Notes: generated by a model from the sequence alone, not told the origin. A stretch of 64,000 nucleotides of DNA from Candidatus Sulfotelmatobacter sp. (GCA_035277905.1 DATEJO010000036.1:8638-72637); one strand, 5' to 3'; shown: positions 37,687 to 63,572, numbered from the stretch's first letter. Translations and numbers: made by a program.

Positions 37687-38883
37687 TTACGCGCTCTTTC
37701 CTCGTCGGATCTCGGCCAGCTGAGCAATCGATGCAATAACATACCCCTGATCAGATTCGCTTAAACCAACGGAACATGGCAGGCTCACTGCCTGCGAGTA
37801 AAGGCGGTCCGCCGTCTCGCACGAAGAGGCCTCGCATCGGGAGTGGACCGGGCTGCGATGCATAGGTTGCCAGAGGGGACGTGTTTGAATCGATCTGGCC
37901 TCAAGTTCTTTGATGAGGCATCTGGAATCCATCCCAAAATGTTCTTCGTTCACGAGGATGGTGTAGAGCCAAAAGATACTTTCAGCCCACGGTGCTGCGG
38001 GCATTGTGACAACCCCGGGAATGTCCTTCAAACCGTTGCGGTAGCGTTCGGCAATTGTCCGCTTCGTATCGATATAATCGTCAAGCCTCTCGATTTGAGC
38101 GCAGCCAAGCGCGGCCTGAATGTTGGTCAGACGGTAGTTATAGCCGATCTCGTTGTGCACATATTCAATGGGATCGTCTTTCGCCTGGGTAGTCAGATAT
38201 TTTGCCCGGCTTGCCCATTTCGGATTTGAGGTGACGATCGCCCCGCCTCCGCCGGTCGTGATGATTTTGTTGCCATTGAAGCTGAAGCAGGCGATATCCC
38301 CGATCGTCCCCGTGTGCTTCCCCTTGTACTTCGCGCCAAGACATTCTGTCGCATCCTCAATCACCACGAGGCCAAATTCCCGCGCAACAGACAGGATCGG
38401 ATCCATGTCCGCCGGATGACCAAGGATATGCACAGGCAGAATCGCCTTGACGCGTCTTCCCGTTCTGCGATTACGTAGTTCCCCGCGAGAGAATTCGCAA
38501 TTCATTCGCAAGAAGTTTGTCAGCTTCTGCGTGTCGATCTGCCAGCAGTCCGGTTCTGCATCAATCAGAACGGGCCACGCTCCCGCATACCGGATAGCGT
38601 TCACAGGAGCAATAAAGGTGAGAGTGGAGACGAGGACCTCATCATCCGGCTCAACCCCACTGACGAGAAGCGCCACGTGCAAAGCCGAAGTGCCACTGCT
38701 GGTCGCGACAGCGAAAGGCGCTTGGACCGCGCTGGCGATCAGGCGCTCGAATCGTCCGACATACTCCCCGACCGAAGAAACCCACCCCGTATCGAGGCAA
38801 TCCTTCACATACTTCCACTCATTCCCCTGAATTTCGGGGACCGAGAGCGGAATGGAAATCGACTCTGTTTTCAACTCGCCCAT
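37687..38883 (-). CDS. DegT/DnrJ/EryC1/StrS-family PLP aminotransferase (LegC-like)
   Basis: GNEWKYVKDCLDTGWVSSVGEYVGRFE at the N-terminus, and the PLP-lysine context FSFNGNKIITTGGGGAIV. Confidence 0.9.
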   Translation of the reverse strand: MGELKTESISIPLSVPEIQGNEWKYVKDCLDTGWVSSVGEYVGRFERLIASAVQAPFAVATSSGTSALHVALLVSGVEPDDEVLVSTLTFIAPVNAIRYAGAWPVLIDAEPDCWQIDTQKLTNFLRMNCEFSRGELRNRRTGRRVKAILPVHILGHPADMDPILSVAREFGLVVIEDATECLGAKYKGKHTGTIGDIACFSFNGNKIITTGGGGAIVTSNPKWASRAKYLTTQAKDDPIEYVHNEIGYNYRLTNIQAALGCAQIERLDDYIDTKRTIAERYRNGLKDIPGVVTMPAAPWAESIFWLYTILVNEEHFGMDSRCLIKELEARSIQTRPLWQPMHRSPVHSRCEASSCETADRLYSQAVSLPCSVGLSESDQGYVIASIAQLAEIRRGKSA

Positions 38884-38897
38884 GCTATAGAACGCGA

Positions 38898-39881
38898 CTA
38901 AACTACATAGACTTTTGATTGGTAGTACTCGATATTGGAACGCATCCAGGCGATGGTTTTCGCCAATCCGTCTTGCAAACTCACTTCAGGACGCCAACCG
39001 GCAAGCTGTTCGGCTTTGTCGCTCATCGCACAAAGCCGCTCGACCTCACTTCCAAGAGGCCGAATGCGATCGTTTTCCTGGACAATATGGCATTCCGCTC
39101 CGATCATCCCGCAAATCGTCCTTGCAAGTTCGCCAATCGATATCTCTTTGCCCGAGCCCAAATTCATGACCTGCCCTACAGCTTTTTCGCTTTCTGCATT
39201 CATGAGAAAACCGCGCACCGTGTCCGCGACATAATTGAAATCCCGGGTGGGAGACACATTGCCGATGCGAATCGGCTCATTTGCGAGAGCTTGTCCAATG
39301 ATTGTCGGAATAATCGCGCGAGCCGATTGGCGAGGACCGTAGGTATTGAAGGGCCGCACGATGCTAACCGGCAGTTCAAAAGAACGGTGAAAGGATTCTG
39401 CCAGCTTATCCGCGCTAATTTTGGTCGCTGAGTACGGCGACTGAGCCTGCAACGGGTGCTCCTCTGAGATCGGAATCTCTCTTGCAGTTCCATACACCTC
39501 GCTGGTTGAAGTATGCACGATTCGCTCTACCCCACTCCGCAGCGATTCCTGAAGGATGTTCAGCGTCCCAACAATATTCGTGCTTACGTACGAGGAGGGC
39601 GAGATATAGGAGTAAGGAATGGCAATAAGCGCGGCCAGATGAAATACTACGTCAACGCCCTTGAGAGCGACCCGGACGCTGTCAATCTCACGAACGTCGC
39701 CCGCGACGATCTCCATCTCTTCCTTGTACTCGCTCTGATCAAGCCAACCTTTCCGGCCTTGCCCGTTGTAATGCACCAATGCTCGAGTCTTTGCCCCCGC
39801 GTGGATAAGCGCTTCGGCAAGGTGGCTGCCGATGAAACCTCCCGCACCCGTTACCAGGACGTTCTTGTTTCGCCAGTTCAC
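38898..39881 (-). CDS. NAD-dependent NDP-sugar 4,6-dehydratase/epimerase (SDR; LegB-like)
   Basis: Rossmann motif VLVTGAGGFIGSHL and catalytic YSATK. The GTG start at 39879-39881 overlaps the upstream stop as GTGA. The ORF-track start at 39962 would overlap the upstream gene by 85 nt. Confidence 0.9.
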   Translation of the reverse strand: MNWRNKNVLVTGAGGFIGSHLAEALIHAGAKTRALVHYNGQGRKGWLDQSEYKEEMEIVAGDVREIDSVRVALKGVDVVFHLAALIAIPYSYISPSSYVSTNIVGTLNILQESLRSGVERIVHTSTSEVYGTAREIPISEEHPLQAQSPYSATKISADKLAESFHRSFELPVSIVRPFNTYGPRQSARAIIPTIIGQALANEPIRIGNVSPTRDFNYVADTVRGFLMNAESEKAVGQVMNLGSGKEISIGELARTICGMIGAECHIVQENDRIRPLGSEVERLCAMSDKAEQLAGWRPEVSLQDGLAKTIAWMRSNIEYYQSKVYVV

Positions 39882-40948
39882 TGCCTCGCCCCGATCTGGT
39901 GCACATCCTCTTGCGCACGCTGATAATCCTCGTGACGCCCAATATCCAGCCAGTACTCCCAAACCGGAAAGCTGATGACCTTGCCACCTTTTTTGACCAC
40001 CTTGTCGATCAGTTCCGGCATATCGAATTTTTGGCCAGGAGGAACGAGTTGCCGTGCCGATGTCGAGACAAGATATATACCCGCATTAACAAAAAACTTA
40101 AGCGTCGGCTTCTCCGTGACACCGGTGACGTTCACTCCGTCAGTCTCAACTACTCCGTATGGAACATCAAAACCGTACTCACGAACTGCAACGGTCATAT
40201 CTGCGGAGTGCTCAAAATGAAAATTCAGAAGGGCACGGAAATCCAGCCCCGTCAGAATATCCCCGTTAATAACGAGCAGAGGCTCTTCACCCGAAATCAG
40301 AGAAAGCCCCCCAGCCGTACCCATTGGCTGATCTTCCGCGACGTAATCTACGGGAATTCCGAATGCCTCTCCATCACCGAGATGGGTAGAAATCTGCTCT
40401 GCTTTGTAATGGGTGCTGATGTTCACCTTCGAAACACCCGCTTGTTTGAGCTGCTCCATCAAGCGATCAATCAGGGGGCGATCACCAACCCGGAGTAATG
40501 GCTTTGGAATCTCGGCAGTCAGCGGCATCAGACGCTTGCCGTAACCGCCGGCCATTACGACAGCGTGAACCAAGCCGGGCGGTGCGTCGACCAGTTCGTC
40601 GAGCATCGCCAGATCCACTACTCGTCCGTCGTTATCGACAAGCGGAACCTGCCGGATGGAACGCAGCTTCATTTCTCTCACGATCAATTCGTTTGTGCTG
40701 CTAACCGGAAGACTGACGGGGCTGGGCTTGCCTTGCGAGCGGTATCGATGAATTAGATCTGCCACCGGAAGGTCGAGACTCAGTCCAGCCAAGACGGCCC
40801 GGCGCAAATCGCCGTCGGTGAGAGTTGCAATCAGATGCCTATCCTCGTTAACCACAAGCGCAATGCCTTTAGCGCCGCGGTCGATGCAGAGCATCGCCGA
40901 TCGAAGAGTGGACTCTTCTGTGATCAGGACTTTCTCGACTTGAAACAT
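39878..40948 (-). CDS. CBS-pair + sugar-1-phosphate nucleotidyltransferase (PtmE-like)
   Basis: N-terminal CBS pair (...IALVVNEDRHLIATLTDGDLRRAV...QVPLVDNDGRVVDLAMLDEL) followed by VVMAGGYGKRLMPLT (GxGxRL nucleotidyltransferase signature). The ATG at 40946-40948 is preferred to 41086. Confidence 0.85.
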   Translation of the reverse strand: MFQVEKVLITEESTLRSAMLCIDRGAKGIALVVNEDRHLIATLTDGDLRRAVLAGLSLDLPVADLIHRYRSQGKPSPVSLPVSSTNELIVREMKLRSIRQVPLVDNDGRVVDLAMLDELVDAPPGLVHAVVMAGGYGKRLMPLTAEIPKPLLRVGDRPLIDRLMEQLKQAGVSKVNISTHYKAEQISTHLGDGEAFGIPVDYVAEDQPMGTAGGLSLISGEEPLLVINGDILTGLDFRALLNFHFEHSADMTVAVREYGFDVPYGVVETDGVNVTGVTEKPTLKFFVNAGIYLVSTSARQLVPPGQKFDMPELIDKVVKKGGKVISFPVWEYWLDIGRHEDYQRAQEDVHQIGARQ

Positions 40949-41137
40949 GAATGCAGGCACTGCCAGGAAATGCGGAGAATCGTTGCTGAATCTTTTGGTT
41001 CGCGCTTCAACCGCAAAGTTCAATAATATTATCATCGAGCCTGGGGCTATTGCAGAACTCTTGGTTGCTTCGTTTCTAAAAAGCATGCGAGTTCAATTCG
41101 ATGAATCTGCGGAAGTGATCGGAATCAACCTCTTAGC

Positions 41138-42187
41138 ATGAGATCTTTCGAAGTAGGTAACAAGCCGATTGGTGAGGGCTGCCCGTGTTTCGTGATTGCC
41201 GAAGCTGGCGTGAATCACAATGGCAGTCTGGACCTTGCGAAGAAACTCATCGATGCCGCCGCTGCAGCCGGTGCTGACGCGATCAAGTTCCAGACATTTA
41301 AGGCCGAAAAACTGATCTCCGCCACCGCCCCCAAAGCGGAATATCAGAAAGAAACCACCGGAACGGCCGAACGGCAACTCGAAATGATTCGCCGGCTGGA
41401 AATGCCGCCGGAGATGACGCGGGCCGTGGCCGCCCACGCCGCTTCTCGTGGGATTCTTTTCCTCTCCACAGGTTTTGATGAAGAAAGCATAGACCTGTTG
41501 GATGAGATTGGCGTACCAGCATTCAAGATCGGCTCAGGCGATCTCACGGCTCTACCGCTATTGGAGTTCATAGCACACAAGAAGAAACCAGTAATTCTGT
41601 CGACCGGAATGTCATACCTCGAAGAAGTCCAGGCCGCTGTCCAGGTGCTGCGAGAGGCCGGCTGCAAGGAACTCGCGCTTCTGCAATGCGTCTCGAGCTA
41701 TCCGGCAAACCCAGAGGACGCGAATTTGAACGTGCTCAAGACACTGCGGGATGCATTCAAAGTTCCGGTTGGCTTTAGCGATCATTCTCTTCGCAATGAG
41801 ATCGCAATCGCGGCTGTCGCGCTTGGAGCCAGTATTATTGAAAAGCACCTTACGCTCGATACAAACCTTCCAGGCCCGGATCATCGTGTTTCCTTGACTC
41901 CCGACGACTTCAGAAATCTAGTTCAAGCAATCCGCGTAGTAGAGGCTGCTCGCGGAGACGGGATCAAGAGACCACAGGTGGGCGAGAGAAACGTGCGCGA
42001 GGTTGCCCGGCGAAGCCTCGTCGCTGCTTGCACTATTCCTTCCGGCACCGCGGTCACCCGTGAAATGTTGGCCTTCAAACGCCCCGGAACCGGCATCTCG
42101 CCGACACAGTGGAAAGAAGTAATCGGCAAACGAACAATTCGTGAGATTCCATCTGACGCGTTGATCAGTTTGAAGGACCTCGCATGA
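41138..42187 (+). CDS. N-acetylneuraminate/legionaminate synthase family (NeuB/LegI)
   Basis: FVIAEAGVNHNGSLDLAKKLIDAAAAAGADAIKFQTFKAEKL plus a C-terminal SAF/antifreeze-like domain (...GTAVTREMLAFKRPGTGISP). Confidence 0.9.
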   Translation: MRSFEVGNKPIGEGCPCFVIAEAGVNHNGSLDLAKKLIDAAAAAGADAIKFQTFKAEKLISATAPKAEYQKETTGTAERQLEMIRRLEMPPEMTRAVAAHAASRGILFLSTGFDEESIDLLDEIGVPAFKIGSGDLTALPLLEFIAHKKKPVILSTGMSYLEEVQAAVQVLREAGCKELALLQCVSSYPANPEDANLNVLKTLRDAFKVPVGFSDHSLRNEIAIAAVALGASIIEKHLTLDTNLPGPDHRVSLTPDDFRNLVQAIRVVEAARGDGIKRPQVGERNVREVARRSLVAACTIPSGTAVTREMLAFKRPGTGISPTQWKEVIGKRTIREIPSDALISLKDLA

Positions 42188-43344
42188 GCCTCCGTGTTGG
42201 GGTTGTAACCGTTGGCAGATCAGATTACGGAATCTACGTCCCGGTTCTGCGCTGTCTTCAGGCCGACCCGCAGACCGAACTGTCTCTGATCGTGGCGGCC
42301 GGCCACTTGGATCCGAAATATGGAAACACCGTTCAGGAGATTGAAGCGGACGGATTTCCGATTGCCGCGCGGGTACCCATGAGAATGGCAGGCGACTCTC
42401 GCGTAGATGTGGCCAATGCGATTGGAATTGGCGTTCAGGAGTTCACGTCGGCTTTTAAGAGAGTCGGGCCGGATATCGTGCTCTTGCTCGGCGATCGCTT
42501 TGAGATGCTATCCGCTGCGACCGCGGCACTGCCATGCAGAATCCCCATCGCCCACATCCACGGAGGCGAACTTACCCTCGGCGCAATCGACGACGCAATC
42601 CGGCACGCCATTACAAAACTCAGCCATCTGCATTTCGCTGCCACAGCCGAATATGCGCGCCGCATTCGGCAAATGGGCGAGGAACCGTGGCGTGTGCATG
42701 TGACCAGCTCCCCTGCCATTGACTCGATCCGCATGTTTGAGCCCCTTCCCAAATCTCAACTCGAAGACCTTATCGGACTCGATCTGACCAAAACTCTTCT
42801 CATTACGTACCACCCGGTTACCCTTGAAAACAGTGATGAGGACAGCCTTGGCAACTTGTTGGCCGTCGTCTCTGATTCCGGCTATTCTCTCCTGTTTACT
42901 TATCCAAACGCGGACTCGAACAACAATCACATAATTCAACGCGTAAGAGAATTCGCGTGTACCAGGAAAGACGCCCGTTTTGTCACGAACCTCGGCCATC
43001 GCAAGTACCACAGCGTTCAGCGCCACGTCGCTGCGATGGTAGGGAATTCGAGCAGCGGCATTATCGAAGCGGCAAGTTTTCGCTTGCCGGTTGTCAACAT
43101 CGGAACCCGCCAGGAAGGCCGGACGCGCGGGCCCAATATCATCGATGTTGGAACGTCAAAGGAAGCGATCGCCAAAGGAATTTCCAAAGCCTTGAGTCCT
43201 GAGTTCCGCCGTTCCATAGCAAGCATCGAGAATTTTTACGGAGACGGCCACGCTGCCGAGCGCATCGTGTCGCTCCTGAAATCAACACCAGTCGGACCTT
43301 CGCTGATATTGAAGAAGTTTGTTGACTATCCCGTAGTTCAGTGA
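42184..43344 (+). CDS. UDP/GDP-N-acetylglucosamine-type 2-epimerase (hydrolysing), NeuC/LegG family
   Basis: VVTVGRSDYGIY...LLLGDRFEMLSAATAA...IAHIHGGELTLGAIDDAIRHAITKLSHLHF is characteristic. ATGA overlap with the upstream synthase gene. Confidence 0.9.
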   Translation: MSLRVGVVTVGRSDYGIYVPVLRCLQADPQTELSLIVAAGHLDPKYGNTVQEIEADGFPIAARVPMRMAGDSRVDVANAIGIGVQEFTSAFKRVGPDIVLLLGDRFEMLSAATAALPCRIPIAHIHGGELTLGAIDDAIRHAITKLSHLHFAATAEYARRIRQMGEEPWRVHVTSSPAIDSIRMFEPLPKSQLEDLIGLDLTKTLLITYHPVTLENSDEDSLGNLLAVVSDSGYSLLFTYPNADSNNNHIIQRVREFACTRKDARFVTNLGHRKYHSVQRHVAAMVGNSSSGIIEAASFRLPVVNIGTRQEGRTRGPNIIDVGTSKEAIAKGISKALSPEFRRSIASIENFYGDGHAAERIVSLLKSTPVGPSLILKKFVDYPVVQ

Positions 43345-44000
43345 CCGCCGAAATGAGCAAATTGAAAGACATCGTGATTTTGGGGGCAGGGGGTCTTGGG
43401 CGTGAGATCCTCGCGCTGATTGAAGCTTGCAATGCGGAACACGAAGAATGGAACGTCCTCGGTTTTCTCGATTCAGATCCAAATCTCGCCGGGTCTGCGG
43501 TCAGCGCTTATCGTGTGCTGGGCAATGACGAGTGGCGGGGACACTCGCACGATTCGGTGTGGTTCGTATGTGCGATCGGCGATCCGCGTGTGAGATGCGA
43601 GGTTGCGAAAAGGTTTTCTGCTATGGGATGCAGGTTTGCCTCCCTAATCCATCCCGATGTTGAGATTCCCAAGTCCGTCCAAATCGGTGCCGGAGCCGTA
43701 GTCATGGCGGGCACTCGGTTCACAATAGACGCGAAAATAGGATCGCATGTCGTTATATACATAAATTGTTCAATCACCCACGATGTCGAAATTGCAGACT
43801 TCTGCATGATCGCCCCCGGCTGCAATCTTTCTGGCGGCGCCGTATTGGAAGAAGGCGTTCAGCTTGGTACAGGTGTCAGCATTCTTCCCCGTCGTCGCGT
43901 CGGGGCTTGGGCCCTTGTTGGCGCTGGCAGCGTCGTCACACGCGACATCCCGGCGAACTCCACTGCAGTCGGTGTACCCTGTCGACCCATCGTGCGTTAG
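43341..44000 (+). CDS. Hexapeptide-repeat sugar N-acetyltransferase (NeuD/PglD/LegH family)
   Basis: N-terminal Rossmann-like IVILGAGGLGREI followed by a left-handed beta-helix hexapeptide region. GTGA overlap with the upstream gene; the ATG at 43353 is an alternative start. Confidence 0.85.
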   Translation: MTAEMSKLKDIVILGAGGLGREILALIEACNAEHEEWNVLGFLDSDPNLAGSAVSAYRVLGNDEWRGHSHDSVWFVCAIGDPRVRCEVAKRFSAMGCRFASLIHPDVEIPKSVQIGAGAVVMAGTRFTIDAKIGSHVVIYINCSITHDVEIADFCMIAPGCNLSGGAVLEEGVQLGTGVSILPRRRVGAWALVGAGSVVTRDIPANSTAVGVPCRPIVR

Positions 44001-61350: not shown

Positions 61351-61492
61351 AACGTCCTCCCGGACTGCGGAAGATACACCTTCCCAAGGAATGATACGCC
61401 TAACACCTGGGGTTAGTTCCGTCTGCAATTCGCGGGAGTCGCGCGCGTAATAAGTCCCGGCCCCCTCCTATTGGAGCTGCCCACCGAGAGAT

Positions 61493-61966
61493 TTACGCCG
61501 CCCCTTTGCCTGCCTCTTTCAGATACTTAAGCACTTCCTCGGCATGTCCCTCCGGCTTCACCTTCTCGAACACGTGCTCGATTTTGCCATCCGGCCCAAT
61601 CACGAACGTCGTTCGTGCCACCCCCATCACCTTCTTGCCGTACATGTTCTTTTCCTTCATGACTCCGAACGCGTTGGCCACTTTCTTGTCGGCATCGGCC
61701 AGCAGGCTGAACGGCAGATCGTACTTTTCCTGGAATTTCTTCTGAGCTTTCGGGGTATCCGGGGAGATCCCAAGCAGCACCGCGCCCGTCTTCTGCATCT
61801 TTTTGTATGTGTCGCGGAACCCGCGAGCTTCAATCGTTCAACCGGGAGTGTCGGCGCGCGGAAAAAAGTAGAGCACCACGGCCTTGCCGCGCAAGTCCTT
61901 CAGCGCGACTTCTTTTCCGTTCTCATCCTGCAAAGTAAAGTCAGGAGCTTTATCATTGACGTTCAT
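61493..61966 (-). CDS. bcp: Peroxiredoxin (Bcp/PrxQ type) with in-frame TGA at the peroxidatic Cys position: candidate selenoprotein (alternative: pseudogene)
   Basis: ORF-track ORFs 61838..62083 and 61493..61798 are in the same frame, separated only by the TGA at 61838-61840. The joined product reads ...VVLYFFPRADTPG[TGA]TIEARGFRDTYKKMQKTGAVLLGISPD..., so the stop sits where Prx has PGCT. GGAGA RBS lies upstream of the ATG at 61964-61966 (MNVNDKAPDFTL...). Confidence 0.6.
61812..61826 (-). promoter_or_regulatory. Candidate bacterial SECIS hairpin downstream of the in-frame UGA
   Basis: mRNA: UGA-ACGAUUGAAGC-UCGCGG-GUU-CCGCGA. This is a 6-bp G/C-rich stem starting 11 nt after the UGA, with an apical loop beginning GU about 17 nt after the UGA. 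Confidence 0.4.
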
Positions 61967-61970
61967 GGGA

Positions 61971-63572
61971 ATGTCTCCGGGAAAATCGAAGGCGGGCATC
62001 AAGTATTCTGCTGTCCCCAGGCACCGCTCCGTTCCAAGGATTTTACACCGGCGGATTTCCTTCACTCGCCTCGCGTTTTCCACCCTCTTAGCGTGCTTCC
62101 TATGCTCCAGTTTTTACACGGTCGCGCAGGAGGAGCGCCCAGAAATCACTCCGCTCGAACGCAAACTCCAAAAGAAAAAAGACAAAGGTCCCCGCGCCGT
62201 CGCATTGCTCCAGATGTCCGATAAGGGCAAGTCATCCTTGATTCCGATCGCCATTCTGATCAACGGCAGATTCTGGGATGCCTCCTCGTACAAGGCCGAC
62301 CCAGTCCCGATGGCGCTCGATTCCGGCACAATCTATGAAGCAGAGCAATCCGGAAATTCTCTCGGACTGTTCACGGTTGGTAATGCGCTGCATAGCAACG
62401 CCGCCAACGCCCCGACTCCATGGCTGGGCACCGGCACCTTCCTCGCGAACGGCGCCGAAGCACCGACCAGAGGGGTTAAGGCCGAATCGACTCCGATCGG
62501 ACTGGAGGATACCGACGCGCCTCCCCGTCTCAGCCGTGACAACGGCAAGAATAGCCCCTCCACTGCTCCGAGCTCGACCAACGCTCCAGCTTCGACGCAG
62601 CCGGCCTCCAAGCCCGCCAGTTCGGGCGATAGCGATGCGCCACCGCGCCTGACCAAGAGTGCTCCGCCGCCATCGACGGACCCAAACTCAACTCAGCAAA
62701 CAAACAATTCGCCTCAGACTACGTCCGGCAGCTCAAAGCCAGCCGACTCCAAACCAGGCGATACAAAATCGGCTGCCAAGCCCGACACCCAGCCCAAGAT
62801 CCCGGCCTCGGATAGCGGCACACCCGAATCCGGTCGTCCAATTCTGCGGCGAGGCAAGCCGGCCGAGTCATTCGCAGATGAGGACGTTCCCGGCTACAGC
62901 AAACCCGGCAGAAGTCCCTCGGCCGCCGCCGCCGAGAGAGTAGTCGACCCTGCCGATCCCATGACCAATATCAAGCTCATTCCGGCGATTTCAGATGCCG
63001 GCGGTCCCACGCCGCACTCCTACAATTTCGAATGGCTCAAGGGAGAAGAAGGCGACCGCCAGAAGCAGATGATGCAGATGGCGAAAGATCAGCTTCACGC
63101 GTACCTCGCCGCCCTGAAAAAAGAGACGATCGCTCCAAAGTCCGCCCACTCTGCCGCAAGCCACCGCGCGTCCAAGCCCGCGGAACCTATCTTCGAGAAT
63201 GTGAAGATGGTCGCCTACGATCTCTGGAATGCGAACATCCCGATCGTAGTTTTCAGCGCCACGGCCCATATGCCGCCGCCAGCTGCTGGCACCGCGCATT
63301 CAGAGATCGAGTCGAATCAACAGTACTCAATCGTGCTAGTCGCCTTCCCTGATATCTACCAGAACCTGCACAAGCTTTACTCCGGAGTGACGGACCGCTT
63401 TCACCTCGACGTAACGCCGTGGCTCGATCTCATCGACGCGGTGGACGCCGACGGCGACGGTCAGGGCGAACTGCTTTTCCGGGAGACCTCCGATTCGGGC
63501 ACCGGATGGGTCATCTACCGTGCAACCGCCGACAAGCTATGGAAAATGTACGACAGCCTGAGCCTGCAATAG
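61971..63572 (+). CDS. Hypothetical secreted protein with Pro/Ser/Thr-rich linker (start uncertain)
   Basis: Signal-peptide-like ILHRRISFTRLAFSTLLACFLCSSFYTVAQ|EE. Central low-complexity region with two DAPPRL motifs. C-terminal DADGDGQGELLF motif. The only in-frame ATG/GTG/TTG codons upstream of the signal peptide are ATGs at 61884, 61965 and 61971, all abutting or overlapping the divergent bcp gene. Confidence 0.65.
   Translation: MSPGKSKAGIKYSAVPRHRSVPRILHRRISFTRLAFSTLLACFLCSSFYTVAQEERPEITPLERKLQKKKDKGPRAVALLQMSDKGKSSLIPIAILINGRFWDASSYKADPVPMALDSGTIYEAEQSGNSLGLFTVGNALHSNAANAPTPWLGTGTFLANGAEAPTRGVKAESTPIGLEDTDAPPRLSRDNGKNSPSTAPSSTNAPASTQPASKPASSGDSDAPPRLTKSAPPPSTDPNSTQQTNNSPQTTSGSSKPADSKPGDTKSAAKPDTQPKIPASDSGTPESGRPILRRGKPAESFADEDVPGYSKPGRSPSAAAAERVVDPADPMTNIKLIPAISDAGGPTPHSYNFEWLKGEEGDRQKQMMQMAKDQLHAYLAALKKETIAPKSAHSAASHRASKPAEPIFENVKMVAYDLWNANIPIVVFSATAHMPPPAAGTAHSEIESNQQYSIVLVAFPDIYQNLHKLYSGVTDRFHLDVTPWLDLIDAVDADGDGQGELLFRETSDSGTGWVIYRATADKLWKMYDSLSLQ

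Follow-up and report, generated by a model that had tools for sequence, protein, structure and literature searches.

The window, that is, the whole stretch of 64,000 nucleotides (64 kb) analysed here, derives from Candidatus Sulfotelmatobacter sp. and carries on its minus strand two open reading frames, 61838..62083 and 61493..61798. The initial annotation had described them as the parts of one Bcp/PrxQ peroxiredoxin gene of 157 codons, interrupted by a TGA exactly where the peroxidatic cysteine is expected, and this description holds in each respect: both parts are in the same frame, the TGA at 61840-61838 is their sole separation, and the joined product is a full-length Bcp. Its start codon is the ATG at 61966-61964 (minus), giving the N-terminus MNVNDKAPDF as in homologues such as P0001, and the product of 157 residues reads MNVNDKAPDF...FFPRADTPG[TGA]TIEARGFRD...KGAA. 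The features of the gene are as follows.

61975..61978, minus strand: Shine-Dalgarno-like GGAG with an 8-nt spacer to the ATG, read from the sequence, with a presumed function
61493..61966, minus strand: predicted complete CDS for a Bcp/PrxQ peroxiredoxin with Sec (157 residues, U43 counted), with the stop codon TAA at 61495-61493
61838..61840, minus strand: in-frame UGA, codon 43, putative Sec codon in the PxxxTxxC motif (P36, T40, U43), at its peroxidatic (CP) position
61823..61825, minus strand: codon 48, CGC (Arg), at CP+5, the resolving-Cys site of E. coli-type Bcp, involved in three stem pairs
61812..61826, minus strand: candidate bacterial SECIS hairpin UCGCGG-GUU-CCGCGA, inside codons A47-D52
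61613..61615, minus strand: codon 118, CGA (Arg), the peroxiredoxin catalytic arginine of the G-x-x-R-[ST]-T-F motif

Regarding the family, profile searches run with Cys substituted for the TGA match PF00578 (AhpC-TSA) over residues 3-131, with E=5.6e-43 and 146.3 bits against a cut-off of 26, and NCBIfam NF006960 (thioredoxin-dependent thiol peroxidase) over residues 2-151, with 168.2 bits against a cut-off of 140. In the alignment with Cys-type Bcp, the TGA falls on the Cys of TPGCT in 16 of 16 close homologues, as first proposed, and the same column is also Cys in the solved Bcp structures 5enu and 5iph. Pro36, Thr40 and Arg118 are invariant in the homologue alignment A1 and aligned to both structures, Arg118 matching their arginine, and the cysteine site is the UGA codon. 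Compared to Cys-type Bcp (NF006960, the E. coli Bcp equivalog; 5enu from Burkholderia, 5iph/3gkk from Xanthomonas campestris), Pro, Thr and Arg of the catalytic site are thus conserved and the same thioredoxin-fold peroxidase chemistry would be expected, whereas the peroxidatic codon is UGY in those genes and UGA in this one.

The resolving Cys of E. coli-type Bcp (CP+5) is missing, as residue 48 is an arginine and the whole protein is devoid of cysteine. Some members of Bcp are known to lack the resolving Cys, which is not obligatory for the family; consequently, its absence points to a 1-Cys/1-Sec subtype and leaves the membership in Bcp unaffected. It also means that neither an intramolecular disulfide nor a selenenylsulfide is possible, since a resolving Cys is absent from +5 and from the rest of the protein.

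A divergent gene, coding for a Pro/Ser-rich protein of 533 aa with unassigned function, has its called ATG at 61971 (plus), 4 nt from the ATG of bcp at 61966 (minus) (61964-61973). With this spacing, the ribosome-binding and promoter region of each gene would lie inside the coding sequence of the other; as the gap is 25-139 nt in orthologous loci, the start codon called for the 533-aa gene may be wrong. Elsewhere in the window, positions 37687-44000 hold a biosynthetic cluster for a nonulosonic acid of the legionaminic or neuraminic acid type, with genes for a LegC-family aminotransferase, a LegB 4,6-dehydratase, a nucleotidyltransferase, a NeuB synthase, a NeuC 2-epimerase and a NeuD acetyltransferase.

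Recurrence of the TGA and selection on the downstream frame

One genome per bacterial species, 596 Gb in total, was scanned on both strands for the pattern DTPG-TGA-T[IV]EA. At least 120 loci match, and at least 116 species-representative genomes have the TGA in a Bcp gene, with about 105-115 conserved codons continuing after it, while the chance expectation is about 2 matches, as estimated from the size of the collection and from the pattern, which has 18 fixed and three two-fold positions. Among the matches listed, most hosts belong to Acidobacteriota, Gemmatimonadota and Myxococcota, the Acidobacteriota comprising Terriglobales, Ca. Sulfotelmatobacter, Korobacteraceae and Thermoanaerobaculia; the nearest of the matches listed is a syntenic locus with the same TGA in a Ca. 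Sulfotelmatobacter sp. MAG (L020), at ~80-83% DNA identity. Moreover, dN/dS over 114 post-TGA codons is 0.04-0.12 when compared with ten relatives, indicating that these codons are translated.

The split gene with the same TGA is also found in an ENA contig (ERZ27257062), 99.9% identical to the window, and in a Logan contig (SRR33230214), 96.8% identical over 5.5 kb and thus from a separate strain. As had been foreseen in the initial annotation, gene callers divided it in both assemblies into products of 42 aa and 101 aa (L001:5173-5646 for ENA and L002:1716-2189 for Logan), both of which still match AhpC-TSA/Redoxin, and the same split results from standard ORF calling with table 11. These contigs bear on the suspicion of a sequencing or assembly error, with TGC or TGT as the true codon. 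The window is probably part of a metagenome-assembled genome, and single-base errors occur in such assemblies; however, two independent assemblies are split alike, one of them from a strain diverged by 3%, and the same codon is present in more than 100 other genomes, so that the chance of an error is negligible.

The gene could also be regarded as a pseudogene, in which a nonsense mutation from TGC or TGT to TGA at the sole Cys codon leaves only a 42-residue fragment to be made. A single third-position change would suffice for this, close orthologues in the same syntenic position have TGC or TGT, and selenocysteine machinery is not seen within the 64-kb window. Nevertheless, the TGA recurs with an intact ORF in all the genomes counted above, the post-TGA dN/dS is not near 1, the TGA has been kept across 3% and ~18% nucleotide divergence with no second lesion, and the downstream hairpin bears marks of RNA-level selection, as can be seen below. 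A pseudogene is therefore highly unlikely.

In addition, TGA is the stop of 14 of the 42 ORFs of the window, and translation by table 11 yields full-length housekeeping proteins; TGA is consequently no general sense codon here, which rules out a genetic code with TGA as sense. The recurrence, the selection after the TGA and its ordinary use as a stop together leave practically no room for a sequencing error, a pseudogene of recent origin or a reassigned code. Among other window ORFs interrupted by TGA, the only candidates mostly outside called genes were judged by eye, seven of them being translated, and were set aside, as they are low-complexity and Arg-rich or start after the TGA. As a separate observation, two different bcp genes with TGA occur on separate contigs (L042 and L064) of JBBSHD01, Terriglobales bacterium LS2_sbin.58, suggesting that one genome or bin can harbour more than one Sec-Bcp paralogue.

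The downstream hairpin as a candidate SECIS element

A SECIS-like hairpin shortly after the TGA had been noted at the outset and was confirmed: it starts 11 nt past the UGA and has a stem of 6 bp, a GUU loop and a folding energy of -8.7 kcal/mol. The distance from the UGA to the apical loop is 17 nt and the loop has a G and a U, so that the geometry fits the published rule for bacterial SECIS elements (PMC10778597), which asks for G/U in the apical loop and for 16-37 nt between it and the UGA; the loop of 3 nt is at the small end of the SECIS range. Taken alone, the hairpin is weak evidence: equally stable folds are present in ~5% of random 27-nt windows and in 5.3% of the segments behind any TGA triplet, and the region of 66 nt is not more stable than its shuffles (z=+1.57). 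Its significance derives from comparative data. As for Rfam, there was no match in the whole window at the gathering threshold or in 61400-62100 at E<=10, and the database seems to be without a bacterial SECIS model that covers the hairpin at 61826-61812.

For the comparison, 117 Sec forms were set against 117 distinct Cys forms (metagenomes) with the same flanking peptide. In these samples, which come from different collections and are phylogenetically non-independent, the mean minimum free energy of the segment 10-36 nt past the codon is -10.4 kcal/mol for the Sec forms versus -5.2 kcal/mol for the Cys forms (p=2e-26), and the GUU loop is present in 97/117 and 40/117, respectively. The preference extends to synonymous codons: in the ACGFRD context, at equal flanking GC, the Sec forms use GCG for Ala and GGG for Gly (26/30 each), whereas the Cys forms use GCC for Ala (20/28) and GGC for Gly (17/28). 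In the ARGFRD clade, to which the window belongs, four of the five codons of GCT CGC GGG TTC CGC do not vary among the 23 distinct sequences, and the Ala codon is GCT in 22 of them. Synonymous-site entropy, computed on 16 full-length genes of this clade, is 0.116 at codons 47-52 versus 0.854 elsewhere, the minimum of 131 sliding windows.

The pairing itself shows the same pattern. Nucleotides 20 and 24 covary in the Sec forms (Fisher p=7e-10), alternating between A-U (Glu/Phe-UUU) and G-C (Gly/Phe-UUC), with no covariation in the Cys forms (p=0.28). RNAalifold gave no single consensus structure for 109 aligned Sec-form segments, owing to register shifts of the lower stem between sequences with Cys, Arg or Ser at residue 48, and was replaced by per-sequence folding and explicit pair counts. 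In the pair counts on the 109 sequences, 75% of the cells are paired, compared to 22-54% in slid controls, and the 38 double-change cells were reached by none of 500 shuffles. Thus, the comparative data indicate RNA-level selection on the hairpin, and this selection is specific to genes with TGA at the codon.

The paradigm of bacterial Sec insertion elements is the SECIS of E. coli fdhF, and both elements follow the UGA directly on its 3' side within the ORF and have a G and a U in the apical loop. A minimal fdhF element is said to be functional 11 nt after the UGA, reportedly in the work of Liu et al. from 1998, and the window hairpin has the same spacing. Meanwhile, its stem is far shorter (6 bp), its loop has only 3 nt, and its binding by SelB is putative. 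The bulged U of the fdhF element is not evident here, and a bulge of one base is present in the 3' arm in other clades of the family. As a further observation, several Sec-bcp genes of Gemmatimonadota (L014, L053, L062, L111, L118 and others) have a second hairpin, CCCUCGG-UUC-GAGGG, about 35-55 nt past the TGA, which is very stable (local MFE of about -28 to -36 kcal/mol) and encodes the conserved peptide PRFEG; it may be either an extension of the SECIS or a mere reflection of this peptide.

The hairpin overlaps the resolving-Cys position, where Arg or Ser is present at CP+5 in 52/117 Sec forms versus 1/117 Cys forms. The codons UGC, CGC and UCC at position 48 each suit a different register of the same stem (loci L003-L122), and the one-base changes from UGC to CGC (Arg) or, in other clades, to UCC (Ser) would keep or improve the pairing of the candidate SECIS stem. 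This pattern suggests that the maintenance of the SECIS and the loss of the resolving Cys are coupled.

Among the Cys-encoding orthologues, P0001 (L243:10001-10474; 92% identity) and P0014 (L244:3001-3474) retain the SECIS-like hairpin, which in P0014 carries a compensatory GAG/TTT pair; consequently, the hairpin is not exclusive to TGA alleles. The locus of both is syntenic, having a gene of unknown function for 533-550 aa, bcp, an unknown ORF of ~120-190 aa and a methylpurine glycosylase gene, with two intervening ORFs between bcp and the glycosylase in the P0001 contig. In a third Cys form, P0118 (L246:3001-3474), the hairpin is lost; the flanking genes are shared, but the interval between bcp and the glycosylase has no ORF. 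The hairpin-bearing Cys orthologues suggest recent reversions from Sec to Cys, while for Prx, the events recorded in the 2006 survey were all from Cys to Sec (PMC1794560). The joint picture, with a cysteine-free 1-Sec clade in Terriglobales, a co-evolution of recoding signal and catalysis, and recent Sec-to-Cys reversions, is offered tentatively, as its chance of being right in full falls somewhat below even.

Probable selenocysteine decoding and related selenoproteins

Within the window, none of the 30 large ORFs annotated with NCBIfam is selA, selB or selD, and ARAGORN predicted no tRNA in the 64 kb, nor a tRNA-Sec in 120 Sec-bcp loci or in the SelB loci. A link to the machinery comes from the contig L003 of Acidobacteria bacterium gp1 AA129, which has a TGA-containing bcp at L003:5773-6435 (-), an 80%-similar orthologue of the ARGFRD clade. 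About 800 nt downstream on the same strand, with one ORF of 185 aa between them, lies a selB gene (L003:3028-4971 (-), 647 aa) that scores 377.6 bits on TIGR00475 against a cut-off of 242. Homologues with 72-99% identity to this SelB are abundant, and the group includes a protein named as SelB of Ca. Sulfotelmatobacter sp. by NCBI, with the full SelB domain set. When SelA, SelD and SelB of Geobacter were used in tblastn against all loci, only the selB of L003 was found, the weak matches in L153 (SelA-like, 25% identity), L086 and L082 (both SelB-like) not being counted as sel genes. Regarding the phylum, SelA, SelB and a Sec-containing FdhA were reported for the acidobacterium Solibacter usitatus in the 2006 survey (PMC1794560), and no Prx entry for Solibacter was found in the text of its supplement. 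As a side observation, a gene similar to AhpD/CMD, with CxxC and not Sec, adjoins the selB of L003, and the same adjacency of selB and CMD is seen in Ca. Sulfotelmatobacter contigs (L248-L257).

The initial annotation considered Sec read-through more parsimonious than a nonsense mutation. This judgement is now favoured by the recurrence in at least 116 TGA genomes, the post-TGA dN/dS of 0.04-0.12 and the hairpin selection specific to TGA, as well as by the ordinary TGA stops (14 of 42 ORFs) and the selB beside the TGA-bcp in L003. The gene at 61966..61493 is thus very probably a functional, Sec-decoded Bcp/PrxQ peroxiredoxin, where the insertion of selenium itself is deduced from the sequence comparisons. 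In the proposed mechanism, the UGA at 61840-61838 would be recoded co-translationally, with the in-frame hairpin at 61826-61812 acting as a bacterial SECIS and recruiting SelB-GTP-Sec-tRNA(Sec) to the ribosome. Then, the selenolate of U43, activated by Thr40 and Arg118 in the PxxxTxxU pocket, would reduce peroxides and be converted to the selenenic acid. Because the protein has no Cys and the +5 residue is Arg, the reduction of the selenenic acid would need an external thiol partner, possibly thioredoxin or glutaredoxin, acting directly on it in a '1-Sec' mechanism; both the binding of SelB to the hairpin and the identity of the reductant are putative.

The UGA might instead be recoded to a residue other than Sec, either to Cys through a SECIS-dependent tRNA-Cys(UCA) of the SelC* type or through low-level near-cognate read-through with Trp or Cys. 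In favour of this, tRNA-Sec-like tRNA-Cys opal suppressors as well as irregular allo-tRNAs of Acidobacteria have been described (Mukai et al., PMC5389517). However, selC* tRNAs were reported for anaerobic Firmicutes, Thermodesulfobacteria, Nitrospirae and Proteobacteria, and not for Acidobacteria (PMC5389517), whereas a canonical selB is present in relatives and adjoins the orthologue in L003. Published Sec members exist in the same family, and the combination of a SECIS with a redox site that alternates between Cys and TGA is the standard signature of Sec (PMC9312934). A non-Sec recoding is, in consequence, considered quite unlikely, and selenocysteine is the preferred reading of the codon.

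It had also been stated that Sec-containing peroxiredoxins were already reported in bacteria, which is true and can be made more specific, as the published catalogues contain the exact Bcp-type family (TxxU, COG1225). Peroxiredoxin (Prx), COG1225 (Bcp), with TxxU, is a listed prokaryotic selenoprotein family (Table 1, PMC9312934), and Zhang et al. described in 2006 twelve such Prx proteins with five inferred Cys-to-Sec events (PMC1794560). Among them are Sec-Prx of Anaeromyxobacter dehalogenans_1, ...YPKANTSGUTQEASDFRD...KEKNMYGKKVMG..., and of Geobacter metallireducens, ...YPKDSTPGUTKEANGFRD... (PMC1794560, additional file 4). With Sec aligned to the TGA, the former shares 56% and the latter 45% identity with the window protein. 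All three belong to the Bcp/PrxQ fold family with a T-x-x-U site (here T40-P-G-U43) and have in common the motifs ...GUT.EA..FRD... and KEKNMYGKKVMG...RTT. Besides these similarities, there are differences, as the host is an acidobacterium (Terriglobales, close to Ca. Sulfotelmatobacter) here and an anaerobic deltaproteobacterium in the published cases, and the CP+5 residue is Arg in the window protein compared to Ser or Asn in the others, whose published entries are computational predictions, too. As the Bcp-type Sec-Prx family was catalogued in 2006, the gene is not novel in kind; as judged by its predicted product, it is a correctly identified additional member of a known, computationally defined family.

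An experimentally characterised Sec-peroxiredoxin is PrxU of Eubacterium acidaminophilum (Sohling et al. 2001, cited in PMC9312934), which, like the window protein as predicted here, has Sec at the peroxidatic position. PrxU (NF040737) represents another Prx subfamily, on whose profile the window protein reaches 52.6 bits against a cut-off of 270, and it is thus not a PrxU orthologue.

The main practical consequence concerns annotation, as the gene is split by gene callers, which was shown for its own two assemblies. Considering this splitting together with the presence of the TGA gene in at least 116 species-level genomes, it is likely that a peroxide-detoxifying enzyme and its selenium dependence are under-counted in the dominant soil phyla Acidobacteriota and Gemmatimonadota. 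Additionally, the Sec and Cys forms that share the local peptide, each numbering more than 100, constitute a large and clean data set for comparative work, which could serve to define a SECIS class and to study Sec/Cys interconversion. Should the joint picture proposed above be true and Sec-Bcp also prove to be common, it would rank with the selenoproteins that are most widely distributed, and systematically mis-annotated, in soil phyla of a largely aerobic kind.
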